IMG/VR virus record: IMGVR_UViG_3300038696_000205
Span: 1 to 64,000 of that record
From: a virus
Reading direction: 5' to 3' (one strand)
Length of the DNA: 64,000 nucleotides
Both the position numbers and the translations under genes were made by a program. The notes under the pieces were generated by a model. That model had not been told where the DNA came from and searched no databases. It saw only the letters and a list, made by a program, of their open reading frames with translations. Each line of letters starts with the position of its first letter. Position 1 is the first letter of the stretch. This document shows, piece by piece, positions 3,623 to 34,000 of this stretch.

Positions 3623-4708
3623 TTAAATTCCACCACCATCTGTGATAGTCCAATTATATGTGTTAATTAATGTGTTACGTGCTGCTTCTGCTGCTCCTCC
3701 TAGCGTGTATTTTGAACCCCCGAAATTTATACTGATTCCGTTAGTTGGTGCTTGCGCTGCCCAGCTTATTAATGTTGCATCGTAGTTTGGTGTGGATAAG
3801 CCATTTGTAAATCTTAAAAATCCGCTAAAAACAAGAACTTGATTTATATCCCAGTTTGCTAGAGAGTAATCAAATAAACGAGCTTCTTGAAACATGTAAT
3901 TTATTTTCGTAACATTTCCAACATTCCAATTTGTAACATCTAATATTGATAAAGATGAGCATGCAAAAAACATATCTTGCATTGTTTGTACATTTCCAAC
4001 ATCCCAATTTTCAACGTTTAATGTGGTTAAAGATGAGCAAAGTCTGAACATAGCTTGAGTATTAATAACACTACTAACATCCCAATTCTCAACGTTTAAT
4101 GTGGTTAAAGATGAGCAATTTAAAAACATTAAACGCATATCAGTCACACTACTAACATCCCAATTCTCAACGTTTAATGTGGTTAAAGGTGAGCAATTTA
4201 AAAACATTGAACGCATATCAGTCACACTACTAACATCCCAATTCTCAACGTCTAATGTTGTTAAAGAAAAACAGTTTTCAAACATCCGAAATAAGCCATT
4301 AGAACTAGAAATAACAGGATAATCGGTAGCAGTCGTATCTAAATTAGAACACCCATTAAATGCTTGTTCAACACTAACATCAAAACTCCCCCAATTAGCA
4401 ATGTTTAAAATCTTATCTTTATCTCCACTATTACCAAACCTACACCCATTAACAACCCCATCCATAGTAATCTCATAGATACCTTGCGTGTCGTAACGGT
4501 GTGAAACCTCTGCTTGGTTATAAGATGTAATTAAATCGCTAGTTCCATCCCCCCAATTAACAACTGCGTTGATAGTGGATGAACTAACTAATGGTAACTT
4601 AAACGTATGGTTATCACTTGAGCCACTGCCTATATTACGAGTGTCAACGGTAAAGATGAACCGCTTATCTTTTAAATTACTTAATATTTGTTGTTGTAAT
4701 AATATCAT
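3623..4708 (-). CDS. BspA-family / DUF285 repeat surface protein with PKD-like N-terminal domain
   Basis: 26-aa repeats WDVSSVTDMxxMFxxCxxLxxLxVEN; VNWGDG..H.Y PKD-like motif; NYD.TLI.WA..YTLGGAAEAARNTL C-terminus typical of the family. Confidence 0.85.
   Translation of the reverse strand: MILLQQQILSNLKDKRFIFTVDTRNIGSGSSDNHTFKLPLVSSSTINAVVNWGDGTSDLITSYNQAEVSHRYDTQGIYEITMDGVVNGCRFGNSGDKDKILNIANWGSFDVSVEQAFNGCSNLDTTATDYPVISSSNGLFRMFENCFSLTTLDVENWDVSSVTDMRSMFLNCSPLTTLNVENWDVSSVTDMRLMFLNCSSLTTLNVENWDVSSVINTQAMFRLCSSLTTLNVENWDVGNVQTMQDMFFACSSLSILDVTNWNVGNVTKINYMFQEARLFDYSLANWDINQVLVFSGFLRFTNGLSTPNYDATLISWAAQAPTNGISINFGGSKYTLGGAAEAARNTLINTYNWTITDGGGI
3925..4290 (-). repeat. 78-nt coding tandem repeat (5 units) in BspA-like gene
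   Basis: (c/t)ccaatt recurs at 3925, 4003, 4081, 4159, 4237. Confidence 0.9.
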
Positions 4709-5361
4709 GCTATTTCACGTTTTTGAAAAATTAGTATTCCTTTTAATGTACCTACATTATCCCACATTTCAGGAAATATGTCATTCCATAAAGTCCCATC
4801 ATAGTCTTCTCCAAATATCTCTAATCCTGTTTGTGTCCAACTTGGTATAAATTCGCCTGTTAATCTAATTTTACATCTTTTAACTTGCTGACCTGTTGGT
4901 GTGTTTGTAAAAGTGAAAGCTGTATCTGCTGTCATTATTAAATGAAAATCACTTGCTAAATTTAAGTCTATATTATAAGTGCCGTTTACAGAACTGGTTG
5001 TTTTTATTCCTATTATCTTATTTTCAGTAGGTGTTAAATTTATACTATCAATATCATCTTTTAAATCTTGAGAAGTTCCTGTATAACCACCTTTATCAGT
5101 TTTAGTATCCAACGAATTTTGAGTTGCCGTACTTATTGGTTTATTTAAATCACTTGTGTTATCAACATTATCTAAACCAACATCTGTTTTAGTAGTCCCA
5201 TGTGGATTTGTACCATCGTCTAGACTTAATTCACTATGTTTATCTAATACTGGAACCGAGGGTGTTGACTTCTCTGAAACTAACTCATAGATATTCTCTT
5301 CAACTACATTAGATGTATTTGATTTAACCCTATTTTGTAATATGTATTTTCTTTTTGCCAT
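4705..5361 (-). CDS. putative tail fibre-associated protein
   Basis: VGLDNVDNTSDLNKPISTATQ motif common in phage tail fibres. Confidence 0.6.
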   Translation of the reverse strand: MAKRKYILQNRVKSNTSNVVEENIYELVSEKSTPSVPVLDKHSELSLDDGTNPHGTTKTDVGLDNVDNTSDLNKPISTATQNSLDTKTDKGGYTGTSQDLKDDIDSINLTPTENKIIGIKTTSSVNGTYNIDLNLASDFHLIMTADTAFTFTNTPTGQQVKRCKIRLTGEFIPSWTQTGLEIFGEDYDGTLWNDIFPEMWDNVGTLKGILIFQKREIA

Positions 5362-5363
5362 AA

Positions 5364-5645
5364 TTATATATTTTTAGCTTGTAATTTGCACTCTTCGACA
5401 TAATCGAAATACTCCTGCCATTGCTCTGGTTTGGTTTCCTTTTGTCTTTGTATTGCTAGTTCTTCATCTATGCTGTATCGCTGTCTAACAAGGTCTATAA
5501 TGGTCTTTTCGTAGTTACTTAGAATACGCTCCACATTTACTGTGTATGTTTCGTTGTCTGCATTTAACACATACCCTTTTACTTCCCATTTTTCAAGGTC
5601 GATACTTGATAAGTCAGCATCTCCGTTTATTTTTTTTACTATCAT
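5364..5645 (-). CDS. small tail-fibre-associated protein
   Basis: RYSIDEELAIQRQ..W.EY..YVEECK motif; sits between fibre-like genes. Confidence 0.6.
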   Translation of the reverse strand: MIVKKINGDADLSSIDLEKWEVKGYVLNADNETYTVNVERILSNYEKTIIDLVRQRYSIDEELAIQRQKETKPEQWQEYFDYVEECKLQAKNI

Positions 5646-5646
5646 A

Positions 5647-7446
5647 TTATTTGTATATTATAAAATCCGCATCACCAGAGCTGACACTTTTAAATCCTAT
5701 TTTAGTGTAGTTCTCTGAATCTGTTATTTCTGAAATACCATTAGTGATAAACGCATTTACAGTGCTTCCAAAAGCTGTAAAAGTCCAACTTCCAGTTCCT
5801 GAACTATCTTTAGTTATTTTTAACTCAAATGACCTAACGTCTACCCTCAAAATACCTATTGGCTGAGTTTGAGATAATAAATTTGTCTTAACTCCTGAAA
5901 TCACCTTACTAAAATTAACTGTTGACCTATTTATATTAATTTCCAAGTAATTATCAGCGTCCTTCATAAGGGCTACATAGAAATTATTAGAACCATCAGA
6001 AGAACCCGGTCTAAATGTTAGGTTGATTGTAACTCTATTTAATGCTACGTCAAAACTTTTAAACCCACCTAAAAGAACGTATGGGTCTCCTTTGTATGTC
6101 TGATTTTCTCCAGTATTACCCCAATTTTCAATAAAAGAATAACCTAATGCCATGCCCAAAGGACTTTTGCTATGTGGTAGTTTTGGTCTCAAAAACTCAA
6201 CCTCCGAAATACTCCTAAACTTAACCCCATCAGCTCGCAGAATATTCCCCGCTGTTGTATTTGTTTCTATTGTTTCTTTATCAACTTTAGTATCCAAAGC
6301 CGTTTCAATTTCACCTGCAAACTCTTCAACGCCTTGTATAAACTCTTTAAATCCTTCTTGTTCAAAAATAGGTCTTACAAATATAATCCCATCAGTCGCA
6401 CCAACTTTTAAAACAATACCAACAACTACTGCCCCTTTTGTTTCTGAATATTCTTTAGTCATTTTACCAGCTTCTGTGTCACTGGCGAAAAGTAACTGCC
6501 CATTGTACCAATTCTCACTTCCACCCGTTGTATCAATATCTTTAACAAATCCAAATGAAGTGACTAAACCTTTTTGCCCTGGTTCTAAATCTTGTGTTAA
6601 AAGTCCAACAAACGAAAAGTTAGGTCCATTACCTGTACTAGCTAAAAATGGAGCCACACAAAAATGTTCATCTATCACATTATTAGCGTAAACTGATGTT
6701 CCATTCAAAATAATTGTAGATGTATCATTCATTACTTGTACATATTGTTCCTTACCAATTTGTTGAGAAACGCCACCGCCCATTCCTAAATCAAGCGTTT
6801 TGTCCTCTGCGCACCATCTTAATTGACCTTCTTGCAAAGGTATATGGTCGTCGCTTAATACATCAAATTTTAGTATATCTATATTCGAATTTAGACCGTC
6901 TATATCTATTTTATTATTTAAAGCGTTCGTTACAGTATTTTGGTCAACACTTCCATCTATATTTTGTCCTAAACTATTATATAATTTGGCTATCCCTTTT
7001 GTTGTAGAGCTTGCATCTGGTATTATATCACCAACACCCTCCAATTCATAAACGTAGAAATATTCTTCGGTCTCTACTAGTCCAAGACTTGCGATATAAT
7101 TTGCAACTATTGCATCTGTTACTTCATTAAATGATGTTAAACCTAAATCGGTTAATGTAAATGGGACTATAATATTCTTTCTACTACCCCCACCACCAAT
7201 ATTTACATAAATGGTACCACTCCATCTATACGTAAGATTTGTATCTAAAGCAACATATATTTTACCATTCTCACCGATAGTTGGGAAAGATGTTAAGTCT
7301 GCATATTCCAATACGTCACCAACCACATTATCTAATAGTTGACTAACTAACCCTTTTTCGGTAATTCCGTTATTCACTACAACTATAAGACTTGATGGGG
7401 TTACCCCTGTTGTCAAATCTAATTCAGTTATTCTCTTATTTGCCAT
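5647..7446 (-). CDS. putative tail fibre / structural protein
   Basis: 599 aa; MANKRITEL start, EYADL.SFP..GE.GKIYVALDTN.TYRW.G..Y motif, ASSTTKGIAKL motif. Confidence 0.65.
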   Translation of the reverse strand: MANKRITELDLTTGVTPSSLIVVVNNGITEKGLVSQLLDNVVGDVLEYADLTSFPTIGENGKIYVALDTNLTYRWSGTIYVNIGGGGSRKNIIVPFTLTDLGLTSFNEVTDAIVANYIASLGLVETEEYFYVYELEGVGDIIPDASSTTKGIAKLYNSLGQNIDGSVDQNTVTNALNNKIDIDGLNSNIDILKFDVLSDDHIPLQEGQLRWCAEDKTLDLGMGGGVSQQIGKEQYVQVMNDTSTIILNGTSVYANNVIDEHFCVAPFLASTGNGPNFSFVGLLTQDLEPGQKGLVTSFGFVKDIDTTGGSENWYNGQLLFASDTEAGKMTKEYSETKGAVVVGIVLKVGATDGIIFVRPIFEQEGFKEFIQGVEEFAGEIETALDTKVDKETIETNTTAGNILRADGVKFRSISEVEFLRPKLPHSKSPLGMALGYSFIENWGNTGENQTYKGDPYVLLGGFKSFDVALNRVTINLTFRPGSSDGSNNFYVALMKDADNYLEININRSTVNFSKVISGVKTNLLSQTQPIGILRVDVRSFELKITKDSSGTGSWTFTAFGSTVNAFITNGISEITDSENYTKIGFKSVSSGDADFIIYK

Positions 7447-7850
7447 TATAAACTTATTTTAAAATTGTTTTCTTGTAATAAATAAAAACCATTTTCTTGC
7501 AATAAAAAATCACCAATTTCTGGGTCAACATTATTAACCTCAACGCAATCAAGCGTTTTAATATCGAATATCTCACATTTTTCATTTGGAAATTCATCAA
7601 AACCTATTAAAAATACATTAACATTGGGATTAATTGACGTTACCACAATTGGGATTTTAAACCCACGGGGTATAGTAACACTTTCCCCATTGATAATTGT
7701 CGTAGTGGTTCTCATTGAATACACTCCATTATAATTATATCTTTGGAAAAGTGCTCTATCGCTTCTATGTACTACATTATTAATCATTAATCGGTAATCC
7801 TGTTTTAATGTCGAACGGTACAGTATATTTATAGATTTGTTTAACTCCAA
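7446..7850 (-). CDS. hypothetical structural-module protein
   Basis: C-terminal LLQENGFYLLQEN motif seen in phage structural proteins. Confidence 0.6.
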   Translation of the reverse strand: MELNKSINILYRSTLKQDYRLMINNVVHRSDRALFQRYNYNGVYSMRTTTTIINGESVTIPRGFKIPIVVTSINPNVNVFLIGFDEFPNEKCEIFDIKTLDCVEVNNVDPEIGDFLLQENGFYLLQENNFKISL

Positions 7851-8055
7851 TTAAATATACACCACTATCATTCGATGTTGTGATAGTTGAAATAATAATG
7901 TCTATAACTAATCCAGGGTCCAATGAAAATTCATCACCATCGTTTATTGTAACAACAGCCGCTGAATCGCTAAATACTTTAAAATATGAATATTCCTCAA
8001 AATTAGCATTATCTACACTATGTATAACCCCCCCTATTAAATTATTAATTGCCAT
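7780..8055 (-). CDS. hypothetical protein
   Basis: 91-aa ORF with TATTTAT motif upstream. Confidence 0.65.
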   Translation of the reverse strand: MAINNLIGGVIHSVDNANFEEYSYFKVFSDSAAVVTINDGDEFSLDPGLVIDIIISTITTSNDSGVYLIGVKQIYKYTVPFDIKTGLPIND

Positions 8056-8091
8056 TATGAATTGTTTAATAATAAATATAATAATAAAACA

Positions 8092-8115
8092 AAAAGCACC
8101 GATTAAGGTGCTTTT
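8092..8115. terminator. intrinsic terminator after thyA
   Basis: AAAAGCACC-N6-GGTGCTTTT inverted repeat. Confidence 0.75.
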
Positions 8116-8133
8116 ATTATTATTATTATTATG

Positions 8134-10209
8134 TTAATTACTTAGTGGCATATTAATTTTACCGTGTGACTTATAACCTACTATTTCAAAATCATCAATA
8201 CTATAAGAATAAATATCTTTAGCTTTATTTAATTTTAATCTAGGTAATTCAAAAGGTTTGTTTAGTAATTGAGTTTTAAGTTCCTCAACATGGTTACTAT
8301 AAATGTGTACGTTAGTTAAATCACCAATAAGTGTTTCTGGAATCATACCGACTTGTTGTGCTAACATTTCTAATAACAATGCATACGATGTAATGTTAAA
8401 CGGTAACCCAAGACCCACATCAACACTACGTTGATGCCATTTAAGTGAAAGTGCTCTTTCTGGTGTTGGCTCCCAATAGTTATTCTCAAAGTCGATAGTT
8501 AAATCATCATTATATTCCATACCAGTTTCATAATTATTACTAAACCATTCCTTATATCTTTCCTTATAAGTTAATTCTCTAGTATAAACCTCAAAGGACC
8601 AATGACAATTATGGTTAATAATATTATTGACGGTATAAGTATGGTTGTTGGCTACTGATAAATTGTATACTGTACCCTCAAAACCATGAATCGTTTCTTT
8701 ATCATATACCCGCAACCAAAGTTTATCACCATCGAAGATAAATTTATCACTATTATTTTTATTCTTTGAGGTTTGAATTGAATAAGTATTATTTTGGTTA
8801 ACTTCTCTACCTTCAATGATAGTTTTTTCTGGTCTATGTTGATAATATAATGAACACTTTAAACCTACTTTAGCATATAATATTTGCATATTAAAAGCAA
8901 TGTTATCAGATATTGTGGTGATACTATAACCATCTTTTGTTTTACAACCATCGGCATCTTCATACCCTTCAATAAATTTAACTATTAATTCTTTTTTCCC
9001 ATTTAATATGAATTCTGGTATTTTTTTATTTTTAGCACCAGAACCGAATTCACTTAAAATCAATTCCCATTTCTTTTGTTTAAAACAATACTTTTTAACG
9101 TTTTCACCAGAGTTAGCCAATTTTGCTAAAGGTACGATACCACCAATCTTCCCATTAATTAACTCAAATTGTGTATCGTTAATACTTAATAATGTTTCAC
9201 CCTTTTCGATTAACCAACCATCACCTAAAAAGTAACCCATTAAATACCATTGTCTTTCGTCATCAATAATTTCTTCATAATTTTTTGATGAAAATTGGTT
9301 TTGTTTTAGTGAGTAATTAATTATAAAGTCTTCTTCCTTTTGTGGTATTGGTATGGCAACATAATCACCATTTTCCATTTCACCAGCATCAATATAACCC
9401 TTACCTTTGATTAAAAATGGGTGATTATGAGTACATTTTATTGGATGAGGGGAACCACAATATCTAAATGACACTAATTTTGTATCATGAACTTTAGTTT
9501 TCATTAACTCATAAACCTCATTATATGAACCATCCTCCGTTAAAACCAAATCACCCTCACGTACTTTTTCAATTGGTATGTATTCACCACTAATTGTTTT
9601 TACTAGAGAACCCTCAACAAAACAAGGTGGTAATGTCATATTCTCAATTTCATCAACGTTCCAGGCACTGACAAGCATTCGTCTACTATCTGGATTAGTT
9701 TTAAGTGTATTTATTAAATCCTGAATCTGATTTACACCAGGATTATCATCGGATGCTCCCCAACCAACCCATTGTTGACCATATATCGGACCAAGCTCAC
9801 CCCACTTATTTGCGAAGTCTTCATTTGTCTTAATTTTATCTACAAACTCGCTCATTGATAAATGTCTAAATTCATTAGGGGCTATTTTTTTATAGTCTGA
9901 ATTATCCATAACCTCACATCTAATTTGTTTTAAATAAGCAGCATAAGAATCGCCATTCCAAATATTAACCCCGTTTAATACTAGGGGTCTAATATTGGTG
10001 CCACCGCTTAAAAACCAAAGTAACTCATAAATAATCCCCTTAGTAAACATTTTCTTTGTCGTTAACAATGGAAACCCATCACGCATGTCTATTTTTAACG
10101 TACTAGAGAATAATGATAATGTACCAGTACCAGTTCTATCACCCTTAACGTCACCATCATTCAATATCTTCCTAACTATTTTTAAATATTTTTTATCTAC
10201 TTTATTCAT
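8134..10209 (-). CDS. thyA: thymidylate synthase ThyA containing an intein
   Basis: DRTGTGT, FPLLTTKK, LGPIYGQQW, NPDSRR..VSAWN, LPP[intein]CH, QRSVDVGLGLPFNI.SY, HIYSNH motifs. Confidence 0.97.
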   Translation of the reverse strand: MNKVDKKYLKIVRKILNDGDVKGDRTGTGTLSLFSSTLKIDMRDGFPLLTTKKMFTKGIIYELLWFLSGGTNIRPLVLNGVNIWNGDSYAAYLKQIRCEVMDNSDYKKIAPNEFRHLSMSEFVDKIKTNEDFANKWGELGPIYGQQWVGWGASDDNPGVNQIQDLINTLKTNPDSRRMLVSAWNVDEIENMTLPPCFVEGSLVKTISGEYIPIEKVREGDLVLTEDGSYNEVYELMKTKVHDTKLVSFRYCGSPHPIKCTHNHPFLIKGKGYIDAGEMENGDYVAIPIPQKEEDFIINYSLKQNQFSSKNYEEIIDDERQWYLMGYFLGDGWLIEKGETLLSINDTQFELINGKIGGIVPLAKLANSGENVKKYCFKQKKWELILSEFGSGAKNKKIPEFILNGKKELIVKFIEGYEDADGCKTKDGYSITTISDNIAFNMQILYAKVGLKCSLYYQHRPEKTIIEGREVNQNNTYSIQTSKNKNNSDKFIFDGDKLWLRVYDKETIHGFEGTVYNLSVANNHTYTVNNIINHNCHWSFEVYTRELTYKERYKEWFSNNYETGMEYNDDLTIDFENNYWEPTPERALSLKWHQRSVDVGLGLPFNITSYALLLEMLAQQVGMIPETLIGDLTNVHIYSNHVEELKTQLLNKPFELPRLKLNKAKDIYSYSIDDFEIVGYKSHGKINMPLSN
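8608..9624 (-). mobile_element. cis intein (339 aa) with LAGLIDADG endonuclease domain
   Basis: Starts CFVEGS after LPP, ends NHN before catalytic Cys; block B CTHNHPF; YLMGYFLGDG and FIEGYEDADG motifs. Confidence 0.95.
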
Positions 10210-10534
10210 AGGTTACTTTTTTTTCGGTTACTATTATTTGGTTTTGTATTGCGTATGTCGCCATATCGGACCAACTTTCAAAATCAACTTCCGTTAGTAT
10301 ATCACCATTTGGGTGAATTTCCTTTAAGTTTATTTTTTTAGTTTCGGAATCAATACGATAAAACCAATCCGTTTTATTAAAATTAATTGTTTTTTTTATA
10401 ATTAAGTCACCCATGTGCAATGCATCACAAGAACCCCTGGGACAAGGCACCATACGACCTTCCGTCATAGAGTCAATTTCACACCTACTACACGACCAAT
10501 ATTCCTCTACCGTATCTTCTAGAAATTTTTTCAT
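10202..10534 (-). CDS. hypothetical protein
   Basis: Intact ORF overlapping thyA start; Cys-rich N-part. Confidence 0.75.
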   Translation of the reverse strand: MKKFLEDTVEEYWSCSRCEIDSMTEGRMVPCPRGSCDALHMGDLIIKKTINFNKTDWFYRIDSETKKINLKEIHPNGDILTEVDFESWSDMATYAIQNQIIVTEKKVTYE

Positions 10535-10535
10535 A

Positions 10536-10967
10536 TTATATTTTATATTCGGTAATGTGTTTACCTAATTTATTGTTTAACGCTTTAATACTATCCTTAT
10601 GGAATATCCCATATTGGTCAAAGTACTCAACGTTTTCAGCCATCATGGTCTTCAATTCGTTCTCACTTTTAAATTGCTCCTTATCCTTAAGAATTTTAAT
10701 CTCCTTTAATATCTTATCGACATCTACCGAATCATTCTTACTAAAGGCATACGCCTTTATGTTACTGTTCAACACCTTACCTTGACTATCGGCAGTCTCG
10801 AACCTCATATAATCCGTAGGTGAAACCTTAAGGTAGGTATATGACCCACCGTTTTTAAAGATAATTGTTAAATTTTCTGTACTCTTGTCCAATGTTGAGG
10901 ATAAAATATTAGATGATTCGTATATCACGTCAATTTTATCGTCATTTTCTACTCTTTGTAATATCAT
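10536..10967 (-). CDS. KTSC domain protein
   Basis: SSNI....D.....LTIIFKNGGSYTY..V....Y..F..ADSQGK..N.NIK pattern. Confidence 0.8.
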   Translation of the reverse strand: MILQRVENDDKIDVIYESSNILSSTLDKSTENLTIIFKNGGSYTYLKVSPTDYMRFETADSQGKVLNSNIKAYAFSKNDSVDVDKILKEIKILKDKEQFKSENELKTMMAENVEYFDQYGIFHKDSIKALNNKLGKHITEYKI

Positions 10968-10984
10968 AATTTTTAGTTTTAATG

Positions 10985-11188
10985 CTATATACCCGTTTTA
11001 TAGTATACTTTTTTTATTTTATTTACCTTACTTAATTCAAATATTTCACCACTAATATAACCGTCAAGGTCACTTTCTATGATAAGGTAATTACCACTAA
11101 AAGAAACTTTTGCGTTAAAAAAATCAAGTTTTTCCCGTGAATTATTACTATTCACCAATATTGAAACTTCGTCATATATCGTATCCAT
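10985..11188 (-). CDS. hypothetical protein
   Basis: 67-aa ORF co-oriented with downstream genes. Confidence 0.65.
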   Translation of the reverse strand: MDTIYDEVSILVNSNNSREKLDFFNAKVSFSGNYLIIESDLDGYISGEIFELSKVNKIKKVYYKTGI

Positions 11189-11301
11189 ATTTAATCAACT
11201 ATTTACTTTACCTTACAAATATACTATTTATTTAGTAGAAAATCAAGCTTGTTTTTCCGAATATAATTAGCTATATTTGTAGCGAAGATAAAACACAATT
11301 T

Positions 11302-12129
11302 ATGAATAGAGAAATTATACCAAAAGTAAAATTAATTATGGGCAAGGCCAATGAAACGGCCAGGGAGTATGATGACTCTATGGTGAGACCAGAACATATT
11401 ATGTTGGCAATTTTAACTGACGATAGTAATTCATGTATTACTTACCTATCGAAAATGGGTGTAAATTTAGACAACCTTTATGATGAAATAACCGAATCAA
11501 TAAAGTCACAGGAATTAAAGACCACCAACATATATGTTAGGAAACTTAAACTACCTTTTAGCGATGAGGTTAAGTTGGCATTTAAATTGCTAGATAAAGA
11601 ATCAGAAGGTGTTGGGTTTACCGTTATTAATACGTCACACATATTACTGGCCTTATTAACATTCCCAAAACTACACATTACTAAAATTTTAAAAACAAAA
11701 AAAGTCACACATACAACCTTTAAAAATAAAATTATGGAATTAAGTAACGGTTTTAAGGAAAATATAGAAGTAATTAAAAATTCCATTAAAGATGATGGTG
11801 ATGATTTAACGATAGGGCGTGGTAAAAATGAAAATCAGACCATTAAAAATGAAACAAAAACCCCAGCACTTGATAATTTTTGTAGGGATATAACCAAGGA
11901 TGCCAAAAATGGTAAATTAGACCAAGTTATTGGTAGGGCCAAGGAAATCAAACGTGTTTCACAAATTTTAGCCAGACGTAAGAAAAACAACCCAGTCCTT
12001 ATAGGTGAACCTGGAGTTGGTAAGTGTTTTTCTTCTGATACTGAGGTAGTTATTAAAAATGATTTAACTGGTGAAGTATTTAAAATTAAAATCGAAGATT
12101 TATTAAAACGATTGCCAACCCCTAGTTAA
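11302..12129 (+). CDS. clpC: ClpC-type AAA+ ATPase fragment 1 (Clp N-domain to Walker A of NBD1) plus 34-aa N-intein
   Basis: EHIMLAIL Clp-N repeat, [44 protein letters not shown] then CFSSDT; TATATTTG promoter box upstream. Confidence 0.95.
12025..12126 (+). mobile_element. split intein 1, N-fragment (34 aa)
   Basis: [34 protein letters not shown] then TAA; intein block A directly after GK of Walker A. Confidence 0.9.
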
Positions 12130-12177
12130 CTAATTTAACGTTAGGTATTGACTTTTTAAATTAAACCGTATATTTAT

Positions 12178-13623
12178 ATGAAATATATAGATATGAAAAT
12201 TAATTATAAAAAGAATGGTAACCATAGTGTTGAATTTAACGAATATTTTAAAACTGTTGATGATTTAAAATTATTCATTAAAAATAATAATAAATTTATA
12301 AATGTAGGTGTTTTAACTAATGATATTACTAACATTTATTATGAGTTAGTGAAATTAGAAGAATCTATCAAGTCAAGCGTTTTAGATAGATTCTTAGTTA
12401 GTAAATTTAATTTTAAATTCAAAAGACCAAATAATATTAATTTTTGGTTAGAAAGAGGTTTTGGAATTTATGAATTTAATGAATATGTTGGGGTTAAAAT
12501 AAATAAATTAGGAAATAATACCGAAAATATATTCAAGTTTAACAATTTTAAATTTAAAATTTTAGGAATTCCAAAATGTAATTTATGTGATTCTGATTTA
12601 ATAATTGAACCTACAATTGGTAGGTATGAAATTAAAGGGTGTTTAAATATTAATTGTGAAACCCATAAAAATGAAACGGTAAGTACAATTAAACAATTAG
12701 CATTTTTACCAATTAATTTATATGAAAATAAAAATAATAGAATTAAGGTTAATAGTAAGTTATATAAAGAGTATTGGTTATTAAAAGGGTTGTCTTATGA
12801 TATTGCTAATGAAAAAATTAATGAAATTAAAGAGTTGTTAGTTAATATCACTGTAAACTCTTTTGATTATTATAAAATTACAACTGATTTAAATGATTTT
12901 GAAATAAATAAAATCATTAATAAGCAATCATCTTGGTGTATTGAACATTGGTTAAGTAAGGGGTTAGATATTAACGAGAGTAAAAGTAAAGTTAGTGAGG
13001 TACAAGGTAAAAATGCTGATAAATTAGTTAAACTTAGAAAAAAATATCCAGAAAGATATGGCGCAACGACTGAAACACAACTACAGTATTGGATAAATAA
13101 AGGTTATAACTTAAAGGATGCTGAAATTAAATTGAGTGAGAGACAAACAACATTTTCAAAAGAAATATGCGTCCAAAAATATGGTGAAGAAAAAGGATTA
13201 GAAAGATTTATTAATAGACAAGAAAAATGGTTAAATAATTATAAAAGAGTTAATTTTTCTAAAATTTCACAAGAATTATTTTGGGATGTTTTAAATAACA
13301 ACCCAAATATTTTAAATGAAAATATTTATTTTGACACATTATTAGATGGCAATAGAGATGATTCTGGTAAAAATAATGAATATCGACTAAAATTGGGGGA
13401 ATCTTATATATTACCAGATTTTTTTGATAAAACAAACGGTAAAATTATTGAGTTTGATGGAACTTATTATCATAGAAAAACTCCAGAAAATAGTAAAAGG
13501 GAAGATAAGAGAGATAAGATGATTTTAGATGGTGGCTATAAAGTATTACACGTAACTGAAAAGGATTATAGAGAAGATAAGCGAAAAGTAATAAATAAAT
13601 GTATAGAATATTTAAAAGAATAA
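12178..13623 (+). CDS. free-standing putative homing endonuclease (Vsr-like PD-(D/E)xK C-terminal domain)
   Basis: LPDFF..KIIEFDGTYYH..D..RD...GYKVLHV motif; CxxC..CxxxxC; repeated W-x-x-[KR]-G units; lies between intein halves. Confidence 0.8.
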   Translation: MKYIDMKINYKKNGNHSVEFNEYFKTVDDLKLFIKNNNKFINVGVLTNDITNIYYELVKLEESIKSSVLDRFLVSKFNFKFKRPNNINFWLERGFGIYEFNEYVGVKINKLGNNTENIFKFNNFKFKILGIPKCNLCDSDLIIEPTIGRYEIKGCLNINCETHKNETVSTIKQLAFLPINLYENKNNRIKVNSKLYKEYWLLKGLSYDIANEKINEIKELLVNITVNSFDYYKITTDLNDFEINKIINKQSSWCIEHWLSKGLDINESKSKVSEVQGKNADKLVKLRKKYPERYGATTETQLQYWINKGYNLKDAEIKLSERQTTFSKEICVQKYGEEKGLERFINRQEKWLNNYKRVNFSKISQELFWDVLNNNPNILNENIYFDTLLDGNRDDSGKNNEYRLKLGESYILPDFFDKTNGKIIEFDGTYYHRKTPENSKREDKRDKMILDGGYKVLHVTEKDYREDKRKVINKCIEYLKE

Positions 13624-13627
13624 AAAT

Positions 13628-13990
13628 ATGAATGAATTAAAAAAAATTACAAAATCATTTGATATGTCAAATTATAGTATATTAACTGATACTGGGTTTG
13701 AAAAATTAGAAAAGTTGCATGAAACTATCCCATATGAAGTTTACCAACTTAAATTAGATAACGGTAACGAACTTAAATGTGCTGATAATCATATAGTATT
13801 CTTCCAAGATACTTTTGATGAAATCTTCGTAAAAAATCTAAAAGTTGGAGATAAGATTGAAGTAGAAGGTAATAAAGGAGGGTCAGTTGTTGAAGTAATC
13901 AATTTAGGTTATGAAGAAGTAATGTACGATTTTGAACTTATAGAGGGTTCTAATAGACGTTATTATACCAATGGAATTCTATCACATAAT
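13628..13990 (+). mobile_element. split intein 1, C-fragment (121 aa)
   Basis: Block B KCADNH, block F MYDFEL, block G GILSHN, +1 Thr. Confidence 0.9.
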
Positions 13991-15085
13991 ACGGCAATAG
14001 TCGAGGGAATCGCAAGCCTAATCAATGAAGGTAAAGCACCAAGAGTATTACTGGATAAAAAGATATACTCATTAAACCTAACCTCAATGGTCGCTGGTAC
14101 AAAATACAGAGGACAATTCGAGGAAAGGATGAAGGCCATTATGGACGAGTTAGAAGAAAGTAAAAACATTATACTCTTTATAGACGAACTTCATACAATC
14201 GTGGGTACTGGAAATGCATCTGGTAGTATGGATGCCGCAAATATTCTTAAACCAGCATTAGCCAATGGCGGAATACAGTGTATTGGTGCCACCACGTTAG
14301 ATGAGTACAGGGAAAATATCGAAAAGGATAAGGCCCTTGATAGAAGATTCCAATCAGTTATAGTGGAAGAAACTACAATGGACGAAACCCAAACTATACT
14401 TGAAAATATAAAGGGTAAATACGAAGACTACCACAAAGTGACCTACACTGATGAGGCTATTGTGGAATGTATTAAATTATCCAATAGATACATATCGGAT
14501 AGGTCCATGCCAGATAAAGCCATCGATGTACTTGATGAAGCTGGGGCATCTACTAATGTAAACCAAAAAATACCAGAGATAATCAAAAAACTGGAGGCCA
14601 GAAAAGACCAAATAAATATTAGTAAACTAGAAGTAGTTAAAAAACAAAATTACGAGGAAGCTGCCAAACTTAGAGATGAAGAACGCAAAATAAACGATGA
14701 GTTGGATAAGTCAAAAAAAGAGTGGAACGATTCTTTGGATAAAAAACGTACAATAGTCGATGTTGAATTGGTGTCGGAAGTTATATCCATGATGACTGGA
14801 ATTCCAATTAGTAAGGTTTCCTCACAAGAAAACAAAAAACTTATAACCATGGACAAGGATTTGATGGGTAAGGTTATCGGTCAAGATGAAGCGGTCAGTA
14901 AAGTCGTAAGAGCAATTAAAAGGAACCGTTTGGGTATCAAGGATAAATCCAAACCAATCGGGTCATTTATATTCCTAGGTTCAACTGGTGTAGGTAAGTG
15001 TATTTGCTCGAACACTCAGATTAAAATTAGGTCTAAAATCGATGGTGTTGTTAAAACCATCAATATAGGTGAATTGGATAGCTAA
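13628..15085 (+). CDS. clpC: ClpC fragment 2: C-intein 1 (121 aa), rest of NBD1 and UVR middle domain to Walker A of NBD2, then 28-aa N-intein 2
   Basis: SHN|TAIVEG; AGTKYRGQFEER, LFIDELHTIVG, DKALDRRFQ, PDKAIDVLDEAG, QNYEEAAKLRD, VIGQDEAV, FLGSTGVGK|CICSNT. Confidence 0.95.
   Translation: MNELKKITKSFDMSNYSILTDTGFEKLEKLHETIPYEVYQLKLDNGNELKCADNHIVFFQDTFDEIFVKNLKVGDKIEVEGNKGGSVVEVINLGYEEVMYDFELIEGSNRRYYTNGILSHNTAIVEGIASLINEGKAPRVLLDKKIYSLNLTSMVAGTKYRGQFEERMKAIMDELEESKNIILFIDELHTIVGTGNASGSMDAANILKPALANGGIQCIGATTLDEYRENIEKDKALDRRFQSVIVEETTMDETQTILENIKGKYEDYHKVTYTDEAIVECIKLSNRYISDRSMPDKAIDVLDEAGASTNVNQKIPEIIKKLEARKDQINISKLEVVKKQNYEEAAKLRDEERKINDELDKSKKEWNDSLDKKRTIVDVELVSEVISMMTGIPISKVSSQENKKLITMDKDLMGKVIGQDEAVSKVVRAIKRNRLGIKDKSKPIGSFIFLGSTGVGKCICSNTQIKIRSKIDGVVKTINIGELDS
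14999..15082 (+). mobile_element. split intein 2, N-fragment (28 aa)
   Basis: CICSNTQIKIRSKIDGVVKTINIGELDS then TAA, directly after GSTGVGK. Confidence 0.9.
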
Positions 15086-15159
15086 TTATCACCCAAAACC
15101 AGTTGAACCAATATTTAATTATCAACAAATAGGTCTTTCTCAAATAATTAACATAGTTA

Positions 15160-16710
15160 TTGCTAAACGTAATAGGTATGTTAATTATAAAAGAGAGAAA
15201 AAAGTATGAATTTAATGAAGTCTTTAAGGCTAATAATGATTTTAATGAATTTTTATTATTAGAATATAATAAACTTAATTTTGATAATGATGATATACAA
15301 TCATCAATTAAGATTCTATATGATAAGTTAGTTAATGATGAGGGAGTTGTCAAATACTTAAGATTAACTAGGTGGGTATCAAAAGAATTTAAATTTAAAT
15401 GTAAGAATATATTACAAGAGTGCTTCTGGTTAGAGCGAGGGTGGTCATCTAATGAAACCAAAGAAAAGATTTCAAATATTATGGTGGAACGAAGTAATAA
15501 GGCTAGTATAACTAAAAGTGAATTAAAAAAAGATATTATATTTGACGACACTGAAAAAGATATTAAATATAATAAAATTAAATTTAAATCAATACATGAA
15601 CCAAGGTGTGGTAAGTGTAATTCAACTTTAGAATTAAAAAAACGGAATAAAAATAATATATTGGGTGATTTTTATTATGAAATAATAAAATGTTCTAACG
15701 ATAGTTGTGAAACCCATAATATGGGTAGGAATAATAAATATCGTGCGTTTCTACCATCAATTAAGGCTGAATGTATTATAAACGAGATAACTAATAATAT
15801 TAAGGGTAGTAATAAATTATGTGTAAAGTCTTGGATTAATAAGGGTTATTCAGAAAAAGAAGCTAAAAATATAATTAGTGAAATCCAAAGTACTAACTCG
15901 AAATTAGTTAAAAATAGATTTATAGTTAGTAAAGAAAATTTAAAAATGAATGGCTTTAGTGATGATGAAATAATTAAAATTTGTCAAACGCCAACTCGGA
16001 GAGAATTTTATGAAGGTAAAGGACTTACCGATGATGAAATTACAAGTAAGATAAGGAAACAACAAAAGTACGCTGCATCATTTGTTGATTATGAAAAAAG
16101 ATTATTACCTAGTAATATTGAATATTGGGTTAATAAAGGACATGGGTACATTGAGGCTAAACAAAAAGTAATTGAAAGACAAACAACATTCTCAAGGGAA
16201 ATATGTATTGAAAAATATGGTGAAATCGAAGGGTTAAAGGTATTTACTGAAAGACAAAATAAGTGGTCTAAATCATTAAATAATGGTGGTAAAATGAAGA
16301 ATGGTTACTCTAAAATTTCTCAACATTTATTCCATATATTATTAAATTCATATGAAGTTGATGATAGGGTTAAAATTATGTTCGCAACCCATAATGGTGA
16401 ATTTAAGTTAAATAAATGTGAAAATGAGGGGGGTATTTGGATGTATGATTTCACAGATGTAAAAAATAAAAAAATAATCGAATATCATGGGGATATGTTT
16501 CATGGTAACCCTAAAAAATATTTAGCAGAAGATTATCCACACCCTTTTAGAAAAACAATCACTGCACAAGAAATGTGGGATAAAGATAAAAAGAAGATGG
16601 ATATTGCTTATCAAAATGGTTTTGAGGTATTGGTAATTTGGGATAGTGAATATAGGTGGGGGAATAAACAAAAAATAATCGATAAGTGTCTCGCATTTAT
16701 CAATAAATAA
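15160..16710 (+). CDS. second free-standing putative homing endonuclease, paralogue of 12178..13623
   Basis: Shared WLERG, C..C, CETH, YW.NKG..ERQTTFS.EIC..KYG, SKISQ.LF, KIIEY.G..FH motifs; start may be ATG 15178. Confidence 0.8.
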   Translation: MLNVIGMLIIKERKKYEFNEVFKANNDFNEFLLLEYNKLNFDNDDIQSSIKILYDKLVNDEGVVKYLRLTRWVSKEFKFKCKNILQECFWLERGWSSNETKEKISNIMVERSNKASITKSELKKDIIFDDTEKDIKYNKIKFKSIHEPRCGKCNSTLELKKRNKNNILGDFYYEIIKCSNDSCETHNMGRNNKYRAFLPSIKAECIINEITNNIKGSNKLCVKSWINKGYSEKEAKNIISEIQSTNSKLVKNRFIVSKENLKMNGFSDDEIIKICQTPTRREFYEGKGLTDDEITSKIRKQQKYAASFVDYEKRLLPSNIEYWVNKGHGYIEAKQKVIERQTTFSREICIEKYGEIEGLKVFTERQNKWSKSLNNGGKMKNGYSKISQHLFHILLNSYEVDDRVKIMFATHNGEFKLNKCENEGGIWMYDFTDVKNKKIIEYHGDMFHGNPKKYLAEDYPHPFRKTITAQEMWDKDKKKMDIAYQNGFEVLVIWDSEYRWGNKQKIIDKCLAFINK

Positions 16711-16745
16711 ATATAAATAAATAAAAATAAATAAAAATAAATAAA

Positions 16746-17414
16746 ATGGTGAAAGAAAAGGATAATTATTATACGTACTTAACTGGATATATTAATGACG
16801 TGATACAACCAAGTGGTGAAGTAGAATCTACTTCTGAGTTATTTAGTGATAAAAAACTAAAATTGTGGATAGTAGATGAATTAATGAAAATACCCGAAAT
16901 TAGTAAAACATTACTATGTAATTACTTTCATGAGTTATATGATTACATATTAGAAAATGAAGTTACAGATTTAGAAGACTTAGTTAAATCATTCTGTTTT
17001 AATAAAATAACTAAATGGGAAATGAATTCAGATTCCAATACAATAATATTAAAAACAGATGAATCTAGTAAAAAAATAACTAAAACAACTAAAATTAGTG
17101 AATATGAAGTCGAAACCCCAAGCGGTTGGGTTGATATAGAAGCACTACACGAGACTATTGAGTACCAAGTGTATGAATTAACCTTATTAAATGGTTATAG
17201 TTTTAAATGTGCTGATAATCATATTGTGATTAATGGTAAGGGTGAAGAAGTGTTTGTTAAAAATTTAAATGAAGGTGATGAGGTTAAAACAGACGATGGG
17301 GTCAGTAATGTTATCTCGGTTATTAATTTAGGTTATAAAGAAACTATGTATGACCTAGAATTAGATGATGATTCAGATAGAGTATATTATACCAATGGGA
17401 TTTTATCACATAAT
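16746..17414 (+). mobile_element. split intein 2, C-fragment
   Basis: KCADNH, MYDLEL, GILSHN, +1 Thr; last ~118 aa clearly similar to C-fragment 1. Confidence 0.9.
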
Positions 17415-18188
17415 ACGTATTTAACAAAATTATTGGCAGAGCACATATTTGGTGATGCCGATGCGCTAATTAGAATGGACATGTCCGAATACATGGAAAA
17501 ACATTCGGTATCTAGATTAGTTGGTGCACCTCCAGGATATGTGGGCTATGAGGAAGGTGGTCAATTAACCGAAAAGGTTAGACGTAAACCTTACGCAGTA
17601 ATTCTTTTTGATGAAATAGAAAAAGCACACCCAGACGTATTCAATATATTATTACAATTATTGGACGAAGGGCAATTAACGGATTCATTGGGTAGAAAGG
17701 TAAACTTTAAAAATTGTTTAATAATCATGACATCTAACGTAGGTGTTACCGAATTAAATAGTTTTGGTAAGAATATGGGCTTTGAAACCAAGAATAAATC
17801 GTTGGACGAACAGGAAAGGTCTCGCTCTATTATTCAAAAGGCACTTAAAAAGAAATTTAAACCAGAGTTCTTGAATAGAATTGATGAGGCGATTATCTTC
17901 AACAGCTTAAAACAAGAGGATATCCATAAAATTATATATATTGAATTGGAAAAATTAAAAGTTAGGGTCAAGGAAACTGGATTCGACCTAAAATTCAATA
18001 AAAGTGCTGTGGAATACATAGCTAAAAAAGGATATGATGAAGCATATGGGGCAAGACCACTTAACAGGGCAATCCAACAATACGTGGAAGACCCGATTGC
18101 CGATGAAATTCTAAACGGTAAATTTAAAGAGGGTGATACAATAAAAGTAACCCTAGACAAGAAAACGGATAAAATTGCATTAACATAA
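16746..18188 (+). CDS. clpC: ClpC fragment 3: C-intein 2 (223 aa incl. N-terminal extension) plus rest of NBD2
   Basis: SHN|TYLTKLLA; RMDMSEYMEKHSVSRLVGAPPGYVGYEEGGQLTEKVRRKPY, LFDEIEKAHPDV, IMTSNVG, PEFLNRID, YGARPLNR. Confidence 0.95.
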   Translation: MVKEKDNYYTYLTGYINDVIQPSGEVESTSELFSDKKLKLWIVDELMKIPEISKTLLCNYFHELYDYILENEVTDLEDLVKSFCFNKITKWEMNSDSNTIILKTDESSKKITKTTKISEYEVETPSGWVDIEALHETIEYQVYELTLLNGYSFKCADNHIVINGKGEEVFVKNLNEGDEVKTDDGVSNVISVINLGYKETMYDLELDDDSDRVYYTNGILSHNTYLTKLLAEHIFGDADALIRMDMSEYMEKHSVSRLVGAPPGYVGYEEGGQLTEKVRRKPYAVILFDEIEKAHPDVFNILLQLLDEGQLTDSLGRKVNFKNCLIIMTSNVGVTELNSFGKNMGFETKNKSLDEQERSRSIIQKALKKKFKPEFLNRIDEAIIFNSLKQEDIHKIIYIELEKLKVRVKETGFDLKFNKSAVEYIAKKGYDEAYGARPLNRAIQQYVEDPIADEILNGKFKEGDTIKVTLDKKTDKIALT

Positions 18189-18191
18189 AAT

Positions 18192-18219
18192 AAAAACCCA
18201 CCATTCGGTGGGTTTTTTT
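18192..18219. terminator. intrinsic terminator after clpC fragment 3
   Basis: AAAAACCCACC-ATTC-GGTGGGTTTTTTT. Confidence 0.9.
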
Positions 18220-18231
18220 ATATTTATATTT

Positions 18232-18849
18232 ATGATACAAGATATACTAAGTAAAAAATATCCTAAATATTTAGATGCTCTGGATATTTACGAGAAAGAG
18301 GGTAGTTTAACCCTAGCAAGAATAATTATTAAACCTGAGTTTAGAAAAACAGGTGTTGGTAGTCAGATAATGACCGATTTAATAGATTATGCTGACGAAA
18401 CTAATAAGATAGTAGTACTTACACCTTCCGAAGATTTTGGTGGTCTTAAAAGCAGTCTAATTAGATTTTATAAACGTTTTGGTTTTAAGGACAATAAGGG
18501 TCCGAATAAAAACTTTGAATTTAGGGAGGCAATGATTAGAGAGCCAAAACTAAATGAAATGAAAAATAATAAATTTAAAGGTGGGTTAAGTGATAACTTA
18601 ACTATTAATGATATTGCAAATAAATTCAACGTAACCGTAGACTCGTTAAACAAGGAATTAATTATGGGGATTAAGGTCGAAATGGAACATGTTAATAATA
18701 AAGAGTCCGCAAAAGAAATAGCCATGGACCACTTAACCGAATTACCAAATTATTATACTGAATTAAATAATATGGAAGTTAGGGCAAAAAATAAATTAAA
18801 TAAATCCGTTAAAGAAATGGTCCACGAAGCTTTAAGAAGAAATATATAA
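18232..18849 (+). CDS. GNAT-like domain fused to DUF5661-like domain
   Basis: IIIKPEFRKTGVGSQIM..LIRFYKRFGF (GNAT); GIKVEMEH..AKEIAMDHL.E.PNYY (DUF5661-like); start moved to ATG 18232 since the track start lies inside the terminator. Confidence 0.65.
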   Translation: MIQDILSKKYPKYLDALDIYEKEGSLTLARIIIKPEFRKTGVGSQIMTDLIDYADETNKIVVLTPSEDFGGLKSSLIRFYKRFGFKDNKGPNKNFEFREAMIREPKLNEMKNNKFKGGLSDNLTINDIANKFNVTVDSLNKELIMGIKVEMEHVNNKESAKEIAMDHLTELPNYYTELNNMEVRAKNKLNKSVKEMVHEALRRNI

Positions 18850-33766: not shown

Positions 33767-34000
33767 CACCCCTCCCTACGTTATAGCCTTAATAGGTATT
33801 CAGCTATACCCCACAAACAAACTACCGTTAGAACGTCTTAAAAGGATTCCTTTAATAACCTAATATAAAATAGGTTATTCGATGAACGGTAATTCCTAAT
33901 TTATTATGTTAAAGTTTTTTAATATAGAATAATTCTAAATAATAAAATAGGTACAAAAAAACTACCTTTATTAGAGGTAGTTTTTTTATTTATAATCGTT

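Follow-up and report, generated by a model that had tools for sequence, protein, structure and literature searches.

A phage clpC-like gene in three pieces and a charge pair that may keep its two split inteins apart

Five head-to-tail open reading frames (ORFs), lying on the + strand at 11302–18188 and separated from one another by 4 to 74 nt, encode a Clp-type unfoldase in three pieces within the window analysed here, which comprises the first 64,000 nucleotides of the IMG/VR virus record IMGVR_UViG_3300038696_000205 (119 kb in all). Read from its sequence, the locus is one clpC-like gene that has been fractured twice and carries two paralogous split inteins, and we consider it probable (about 0.6) that these inteins splice mainly in their cognate combinations to give a ClpC of 834 amino acids (aa). 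The two halves of each intein are predicted to meet at a contact, between residue 13 of the N-terminal half (IntN) and residues 14 and 23 of the C-terminal half (IntC), whose charges are swapped between the inteins, and cognate splicing should therefore dominate. The middle piece, fragment 2 (485 aa, 13628–15085), consists of IntC1 (121 aa), an extein (336 aa) and IntN2 (28 aa); this IntC-extein-IntN layout had been pointed out in a sequence-only reading of the window and held up in our ORF reading. The same reading had offered two outcomes, either strict orthogonality of the inteins or alternative protein splicing that yields several Clp isoforms, of which the co-varying charge pair favours the first, while the programmed isoforms found no support. 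The layout is the unavoidable outcome of a double break and is no device in itself. Since CheckV puts the completeness of the 119-kb record at ~34%, its source would be a large phage.

Two split inteins in one clpC-like gene

The three exteins together make up a complete Clp protein. The N-extein E1 (241 aa, 11302–12024) comprises Clp_N (Pfam, E = 1.1e-12), a linker, the first strand of nucleotide-binding domain 1 (NBD1) and its Walker A motif up to GEPGVGK. The middle extein E2 (336 aa, 13991–14998; Pfam AAA, AAA_lid_9 and UVR) continues NBD1 from the Walker A Thr through the AAA lid and the UVR/M-domain, and its C-terminal end supplies the first strand of NBD2 with Walker A up to GSTGVGK. 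The C-extein E3 (257 aa plus stop, 17415–18188) then runs from the NBD2 Walker A Thr through D2-small (Pfam AAA_2, E = 4.3e-60; ClpB_D2-small, E = 2.5e-28). Joining the exteins (241 + 336 + 257) gives 834 aa with both Walker A loops intact, compared with 826–848 aa for intein-free relatives, to which identity reaches 79%. All the Pfam domains of a Class I Hsp100/Clp protein of the ClpC/ClpB type (Clp_N, AAA, AAA_lid_9, UVR, AAA_2 and ClpB_D2-small) were found distributed over the three exteins. An Rfam scan of 11000–18500 gave no match to a group I intron or other RNA element apart from terminator-like ones at ~18.2 kb, so that the pieces are true separate ORFs; an RNA element, such as a group I intron, joining the ORFs was thereby ruled out.

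Both inteins interrupt the same K|T position, in the Walker A loops of NBD1 (site 1) and NBD2 (site 2), with K at −1 and T at +1. Fragment 1 ends with GEPGVGK|C, followed by 33 further residues and a stop, and its IntN1 thus has 34 aa (12025–12129, including the stop at 12127–12129). IntC1 (121 aa, 13628–13990) contains blocks B (CADNH), F (MYDFEL) and G (ILSHN), ends in SHN and meets E2 at ...YYTNGILSHN|TAIVEG, whereas fragment 2 closes with GSTGVGK|C and another 27 intein residues before its stop, the Cys and these residues making up the 28-aa IntN2 (CICSNTQIKIRSKIDGVVKTINIGELDS; 14999–15085, including the stop at 15083–15085). The IntC2 core (~116 aa, 17067–17414) likewise ends in SHN and borders E3 at SHN|TYLTK. 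With the same K|T site in both inteins, the two aberrant junctions proposed earlier, GSTGVGK-TAIVEG for a cyclic middle piece and GEPGVGK-TYLTK for a skip product joining E1 to E3, had been read correctly.

IntN and IntC lie in separate ORFs, each fused to its extein, and the inteins are thus naturally split. All residues expected of class 1 splicing are present in both, namely Cys1, the block B His (CADNH), the block F Asp (MYD[FL]EL), the terminal His-Asn and Thr+1, and these intact residues, together with purifying selection on the exteins (see below), lead us to infer that both are active in trans. The split falls between blocks A and B, leaving IntN of 34 and 28 aa and IntC of 121 and ~116 aa with block B inside IntC; with the split after block A and CADNH in the C-terminal part, we grouped the inteins with the atypically split AceL-TerL, GOS-TerL and Cat inteins. 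Profile searches matched CatC, gp41-1 and VidaL inteins (E = 2.9e-9 to 1e-6), the best being CatC (PDB 6dsl_B, E = 2.9e-9), and the Pfam Intein_splicing model gave a sub-threshold match only (20.3 bits against a cut-off of 35.8). A hidden Markov model of IntC also picked up members of this family in TerL-like genes on other viral contigs. On one further viral contig, L071, a TerL-like region (4329–6509 and 7566–8786) has a 727-aa ORF that matches the IntC model twice and, next to it, an ORF that matches it once, placing several inteins of the family in one gene neighbourhood along with two nuclease genes.

The two inteins are evidently paralogues. IntC1 and IntC2 share 54% identity (63/117 aa), and a tblastn search of the genome with fragment 2 returned a second copy at 17067–17495 with E = 2.8e-35, far beyond chance. 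The similarity noticed earlier is therefore real, with every motif quoted for it present in both, and it had been taken as a ground for cross-reactivity; it resides mostly in the catalytic body, however, and the systematic differences lie mainly in IntN (9/26 residues identical between IntN1 and IntN2) and in the first 26 residues of IntC.

Charge pairing between the intein halves

Comparing relatives by insertion site, we found a single strict difference between site-1 and site-2 IntN, at residue 13, which is Asp at site 1 (RNDLTGE) and Lys at site 2 (RNKxTG). The RNDLTGE signature occurs in 35 of the 41 site-1 IntN clusters, and Lys13 in nearly all site-2 IntN. For IntC, systematic differences between the sites fall at residues 8–10, 13, 14, 23, 26 and 99, seven of the eight within the first 26 residues, next to the split; beyond these the two site consensuses are almost the same. 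In the window, intein 1 combines Asp13 (codon 12061–12063) with Ser14 (13676–13678), Lys23 (13703–13705) and Lys26 (13712–13714), and intein 2 combines Lys13 (15035–15037) with Glu14 (17106–17108) and Asp23 (17133–17135), followed by Ala26 (17142–17144), all on the + strand.

These residues vary together across the family. At site 1, an Asp13 IntN pairs with an IntC having Ser14/Lys23, and the pairs comprise about 23 of Asp13 with Lys23, two of Asn13 with Asn23 and two of Lys13 with Glu14/Asp23. The last two, P0155 and P0192, whose site-1 IntN carry Lys13, pair with P0034 and P0028, the sole double-split IntC1 having Glu14/Asp23 (P0034 and P0155 on contigs of 7,484 nt, P0028 and P0192 on contigs of 21,723 nt). 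At site 2, where IntN has Lys13, IntC has Glu14 in 111/112 clusters and Asp or Glu at 23 in 105/112. Similarly, TerL-type relatives show Lys13 with Glu14, and two cases of Asp13 have Arg or Lys at 14. Over 63 intein pairs, the charge of residue 13 was never discordant with that of residues 14 and 23.

In the AlphaFold secondary structure, the IntN hairpin has residue 13 at its turn and the first hairpin of IntC has residues 14 and 23–26 on its two strands, probably bringing these IntC residues face to face. We infer that IntN residue 13 and IntC residues 14 and 23 touch at the interface, with the polarity reversed between the two inteins of the window. Given this opposite polarity, like charges would meet in either non-cognate pairing, with IntN2 Lys13 set on IntC1 Lys23/Lys26 and IntN1 Asp13 on IntC2 Glu14/Asp23. 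Changing charges at the interface is the route that engineers have taken towards orthogonality of closely related inteins. An AlphaFold2 model of fragment 2, tried as a view of IntN2 docking, returned a beta-hairpin and a helix at pLDDT ~72–78; the control P0045, which has no IntC, gave the same tail shape and confidence, making the fragment 2 model uninformative on docking.

In the mechanism that we propose, three products, E1-IntN1, IntC1-E2-IntN2 and IntC2-E3, would be made from one transcription unit. A bidirectional intrinsic-terminator-like hairpin (18192–18217, 11-bp stem, T runs on both strands) closes the locus, and none comparable was found between the five ORFs, which is why we take them to be transcribed together. 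IntN1 would bind IntC1 and IntN2 would bind IntC2, and two class 1 reactions with Thr+1 would restore both P-loops, the two trans-splicing events yielding an 834-aa ClpC-type unfoldase. Like charges between IntN2 and IntC1 would disfavour cyclisation of fragment 2, and the reversed clash between IntN1 and IntC2 would disfavour skipping. Furthermore, IntC1 would emerge from the ribosome ~360 residues ahead of IntN2, and IntN1, made earlier, could already occupy it; with fragment 1 translated first and IntC1 before IntN2, cyclisation would thus be further disfavoured. Cyclic or skipped products would then be minor by-products at most.

A number of observations weigh against this proposal. The pattern contains just three independent contrasts on well-supported branches, all three concordant (sign test p = 0.25), and 13 of the IntN/IntC pairs were matched by the equal size and the source of their contigs alone. 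P0034 joins the Lys13/Glu14 type at site 1 to a Lys13 IntN2 and has the same charge at both sites, so that the charge lock is not universal; P0028 has the same site-1 type, yet its IntN2 carries Val13 in place of Lys13. Covariation would also be expected if homing simply moves IntN along with the endonuclease gene and the beginning of IntC. Moreover, binding in Cat-type inteins has been reported to be mainly hydrophobic, and one salt bridge may therefore give partial selectivity only. Character displacement in double-split genomes was considered and dropped, as the two inteins of such a genome differ no more than site-1 and site-2 inteins paired at random (IntC identities of 0.54–0.69 against a random mean of 0.61, IntN identities of 0.35–0.50 against a mean of 0.40).

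Related concerns bear on an alternative that we regard as possible but rather doubtful, in which the inteins are partly selective, fragment 2 cyclises or concatenates to a substantial extent, some E1-E3 skip product forms, and all of these are tolerated as non-functional by-products. Past the first 26 residues the consensuses of IntC1 and IntC2 are nearly identical, both sites have an identical extein context (K at −1, T at +1), and cyclisation, being intramolecular, would be kinetically favoured once IntN2 has been made. Published experiments, also within the TerL family, point the same way: the IntC of a short-IntN split intein accepted IntN of just 41–50% identity (PMC3443213), the IntN of GOS-TerL and AceL-TerL are reported to be interchangeable (PMC11766414), and in a 24 × 24 matrix cross-talk arose chiefly among short-peptide splits (PMC7090010). 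In nature, too, site-2 IntC that are 85–92% identical partner IntN that are merely 35–50% identical, the same distance as that between IntN1 and IntN2 of the window, and the double-split P0034, with one charge state at both sites, and the related P0028, sharing its site-1 type, would fit incomplete selectivity. What argues for predominantly cognate splicing instead is the polarity swap between residue 13 and residues 14/23, predicting a like-charge clash in both non-cognate pairings, together with the synthesis of IntC1 long ahead of IntN2. Cyclisation would also squander the middle piece, which is essential to a gene that appears to be under purifying selection and is common in three-piece form.

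The same cross-reactions could in principle be a selected function, such that programmed alternative splicing gives ClpC, a circular NBD1/M-domain ATPase and a single-ring ATPase made of the N-domain and NBD2. Because the two P-loop sites are homologous, both aberrant products would have an intact chimeric Walker A, and there is a precedent in engineered intein-mediated protein alternative splicing (iPAS), which has been achieved according to a citing article (Aranko et al. 2013, cited in PMC8175363). IntC1 and IntN2, however, show no sign of co-adaptation and have charges of the same sign at the co-varying contact, relatives manage with one intein, none or a contiguous form, so that the isoforms are not required, and the presence of inteins and endonuclease genes resembles selfish-element turnover. 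We consider such programmed splicing highly improbable.

Recurrence, selection and intein movement

To place the locus among its relatives, we counted the 120 protein clusters nearest to fragment 2. The IntC1-extein-IntN2 layout was present in 21 of them, at identities down to 52% and on contigs of up to 367 kb; a further 28 have intein 1 only, 47 have intein 2 only, 23 have neither and one has a contiguous site-2 intein. Two metagenome contigs, L075 and L076, are nearly identical to the window. Between the window and L075, the exteins differ by 41 synonymous and 9 nonsynonymous codons, the latter all mild changes (33 synonymous and 9 nonsynonymous in E2), and the four intein parts show zero codon differences. 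On the basis of these codon counts and of the recurrence, the three-piece gene appears widespread and its exteins under purifying selection. Among the GenBank phage records in the matches listed, none has the layout; one further GenBank phage record was counted, with at least 80% of fragment 2 covered at 60–80% identity, and it may be the window's own or a near one.

These data also speak to a reading that we find very unlikely, namely that the gene is broken and decaying, or that its pieces assemble non-covalently via the intein halves. Endonuclease genes are indeed degraded in some relatives, and splicing itself is deduced here from sequence alone. The splicing residues, on the other hand, are intact in both inteins and in dozens of diverged relatives, the 41 synonymous against 9 nonsynonymous changes indicate purifying selection on the exteins, and an unspliced intein within the Walker A loop would prevent ATP binding, all of which argues against this reading.

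The stretch shared with L075 covers window 10500–18250 (~7.7 kb), beyond which the flanks cannot be aligned in register. Within it the two sequences are nearly the same except for 42 differing codons restricted to the middle extein (window 14000–15000), which look like a recombination patch within fragment 2.

The relatives contain several other arrangements. In L027, ClpC is an uninterrupted protein of 1019 aa that has at site 2 (6351–6869) a mini-intein of this family, contiguous and 173 aa long, a natural cis form that could serve structural work. In L086 (contig family of L018), the site-1 intein is split and the site-2 intein is in cis: a single 1070-aa ORF at 6483–9692 encodes IntC1 and both the middle extein and the C-extein, with a contiguous intein of 343 aa at site 2. 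Degraded endonuclease remnants lie upstream. Loci L023 (3634–5157) and L041 (3632–5143) have a distant, different intein (…SNG[VI]VSHN|CGKTAIVEG) whose insertion point in the NBD1 P-loop lies two residues further upstream, and their site 2 has the usual split intein; L024–L026 have an unrelated contiguous insert of 364 aa at site 1.

In trees of IntC, all Clp inteins form one clade with strong clustering by site. In the first tree, a site-1 clade was nested within site 2; however, an approximately unbiased (AU) test for site-2 monophyly was borderline (p = 0.052), and a larger but poorly resolved tree has about five site changes and places the IntC2 of the window among site-1 sequences. The intein of L047 looks mosaic. 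Two clean site lineages were initially considered and were dropped in view of the nested first tree, the ~5 site changes of the larger one and the mosaic appearance of L047. We propose from these trees that inteins have been exchanged between the two paralogous P-loops at least once.

Each intein's gap holds one free-standing gene, and these two, HEG1 and HEG2, are putative selfish endonuclease genes of Vsr-like type. HEG1 (481 aa, 12178–13623, +) has a Vsr/DUF559-like C-terminal nuclease domain, with DUF559 scoring 21.2 bits, just over the Pfam cut-off of 20.6, and MTES_1575 also matching (residues 408–478). HEG2 (15160–16710, +) has 516 aa when read from a TTG, a downstream ATG being a candidate for the true start; it is 33% identical to HEG1 over its length and matches phrog_22677 (E = 8.3e-25), with no Pfam match. 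A sequence search with the endonuclease genes gave no PDB relative. Across viral and metagenome contigs, the endonuclease gene is found intact, as remnants (L017, L051) or lost (L003 at site 1, L022, L028).

Upstream of IntC2, an open frame of 107 aa (16746–17066, +) has no family match, and its 107 codons have a counterpart only in the near-identical L075 and L076 and in no other related locus. The stretch is probably outside the functional protein, with the start of fragment 3 at Met93 (17022) being likelier. Ahead of the annotated ATG lies an AT-rich, (ATAAA)n-like repeat.

Elsewhere in the window, the Bacteroidota-type promoter pattern TTTG-N18-21-TAnnTTTR occurs 49 times against 9.9 expected. 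The matches cluster at 34000–61000, mostly on the − strand and in a nearly invariant TTTGGTAG...GTATCTTTG form, and none lies on the + strand of the Clp locus. This pattern suggests that the host belongs to the Bacteroidota and that the region is a block of early genes. A sigma-70 promoter scan showed no enrichment (47 found, 50 expected).

Significance and comparison with known systems

Fractured genes and atypically split inteins are already known; the double break is the new part. It makes the three-piece gene a natural experiment in intein specificity, as the middle piece survives only if IntC1 and IntN2 largely disregard each other, and the comparative data indicate that the determinant may be small, a polarity-swapped residue pair adjoining the split site. 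If confirmed, the locus would provide a natural orthogonal pair of short-IntN inteins with identical junction needs (K at −1, T at +1) for one-pot ligation of three segments, and would suggest a simple rule for creating further orthogonal pairs. It also exemplifies the apparent movement of inteins between the paralogous P-loops of a duplicated ATPase. Our literature search found no paper on inteins in ClpC or ClpB, no report of a natural protein needing three polypeptides joined by two split inteins, and none of two close split-intein paralogues side by side in one gene.

The closest known arrangement is that of the fractured genes described by Dassa, London, Stoddard, Schueler-Furman and Pietrokovski in 2009 (PMC2677866), which have the same order on one strand, with the N-part and IntN, a spacer, an endonuclease gene, and IntC with the C-part. 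The likeness extends to the Vsr-like endonuclease, the phage context and a conserved enzyme motif as the target, and each intermediate step of their model, including loss of the endonuclease and contiguous forms, is seen among the relatives here. What differs is that the break occurs twice in one gene, at paralogous sites and with paralogous inteins. Clp is not among the host genes of that study, in which we found no doubly split locus either, the closest being DnaE-1 with part of an additional in-frame intein, and the inteins characterised from it (gp41-1, NrdJ-1 and IMPDH-1) are split at the canonical site rather than after block A (PMC2677866).

In their architecture, the inteins resemble AceL-TerL, GOS-TerL and Cat (PDB 6DSL), which share IntN of 25–37 aa, IntC of 104–115 aa, the split between blocks A and B and a phage origin. 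The AceL-TerL and GOS-TerL inteins reside in a terminase with Cys at +1, whereas those of the window reside in a Clp ATPase with Thr at +1; the IntN hairpin is longer here (RN[DK]xTGE), and two diverged copies occupy one gene.

Fragment 2 also has the SICLOPPS order, IntC-target-IntN in a single polypeptide, as had been recognised earlier, and this is the geometry of backbone cyclisation. SICLOPPS, however, uses the halves of one intein, whereas those of fragment 2 come from two inteins of opposite contact charge and flank a folded ATPase target of 336 aa. IntC1 and IntN2 belong to different intein lineages and present like charges at residues 13 and 14/23, which speaks against their being complementary halves; the known promiscuity of short-IntN inteins speaks in favour of it. 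With iPAS (Aranko et al. 2013, cited in PMC8175363), the locus shares the notion of inteins joining alternative combinations of exteins. As far as that citation describes it, iPAS relies on domain swapping of engineered cis-inteins and shows no natural case, and the present locus does not supply one.

The engineered counterpart is the ligation of three pieces with orthogonal split inteins (PMC7090010; bioRxiv 10.1101/546465), in which the middle piece likewise has the form IntC(a)-X-IntN(b) and the ligation requires a and b to be orthogonal. Here the arrangement is natural, and its two inteins are close paralogues, with IntC 54% identical, rather than unrelated inteins.

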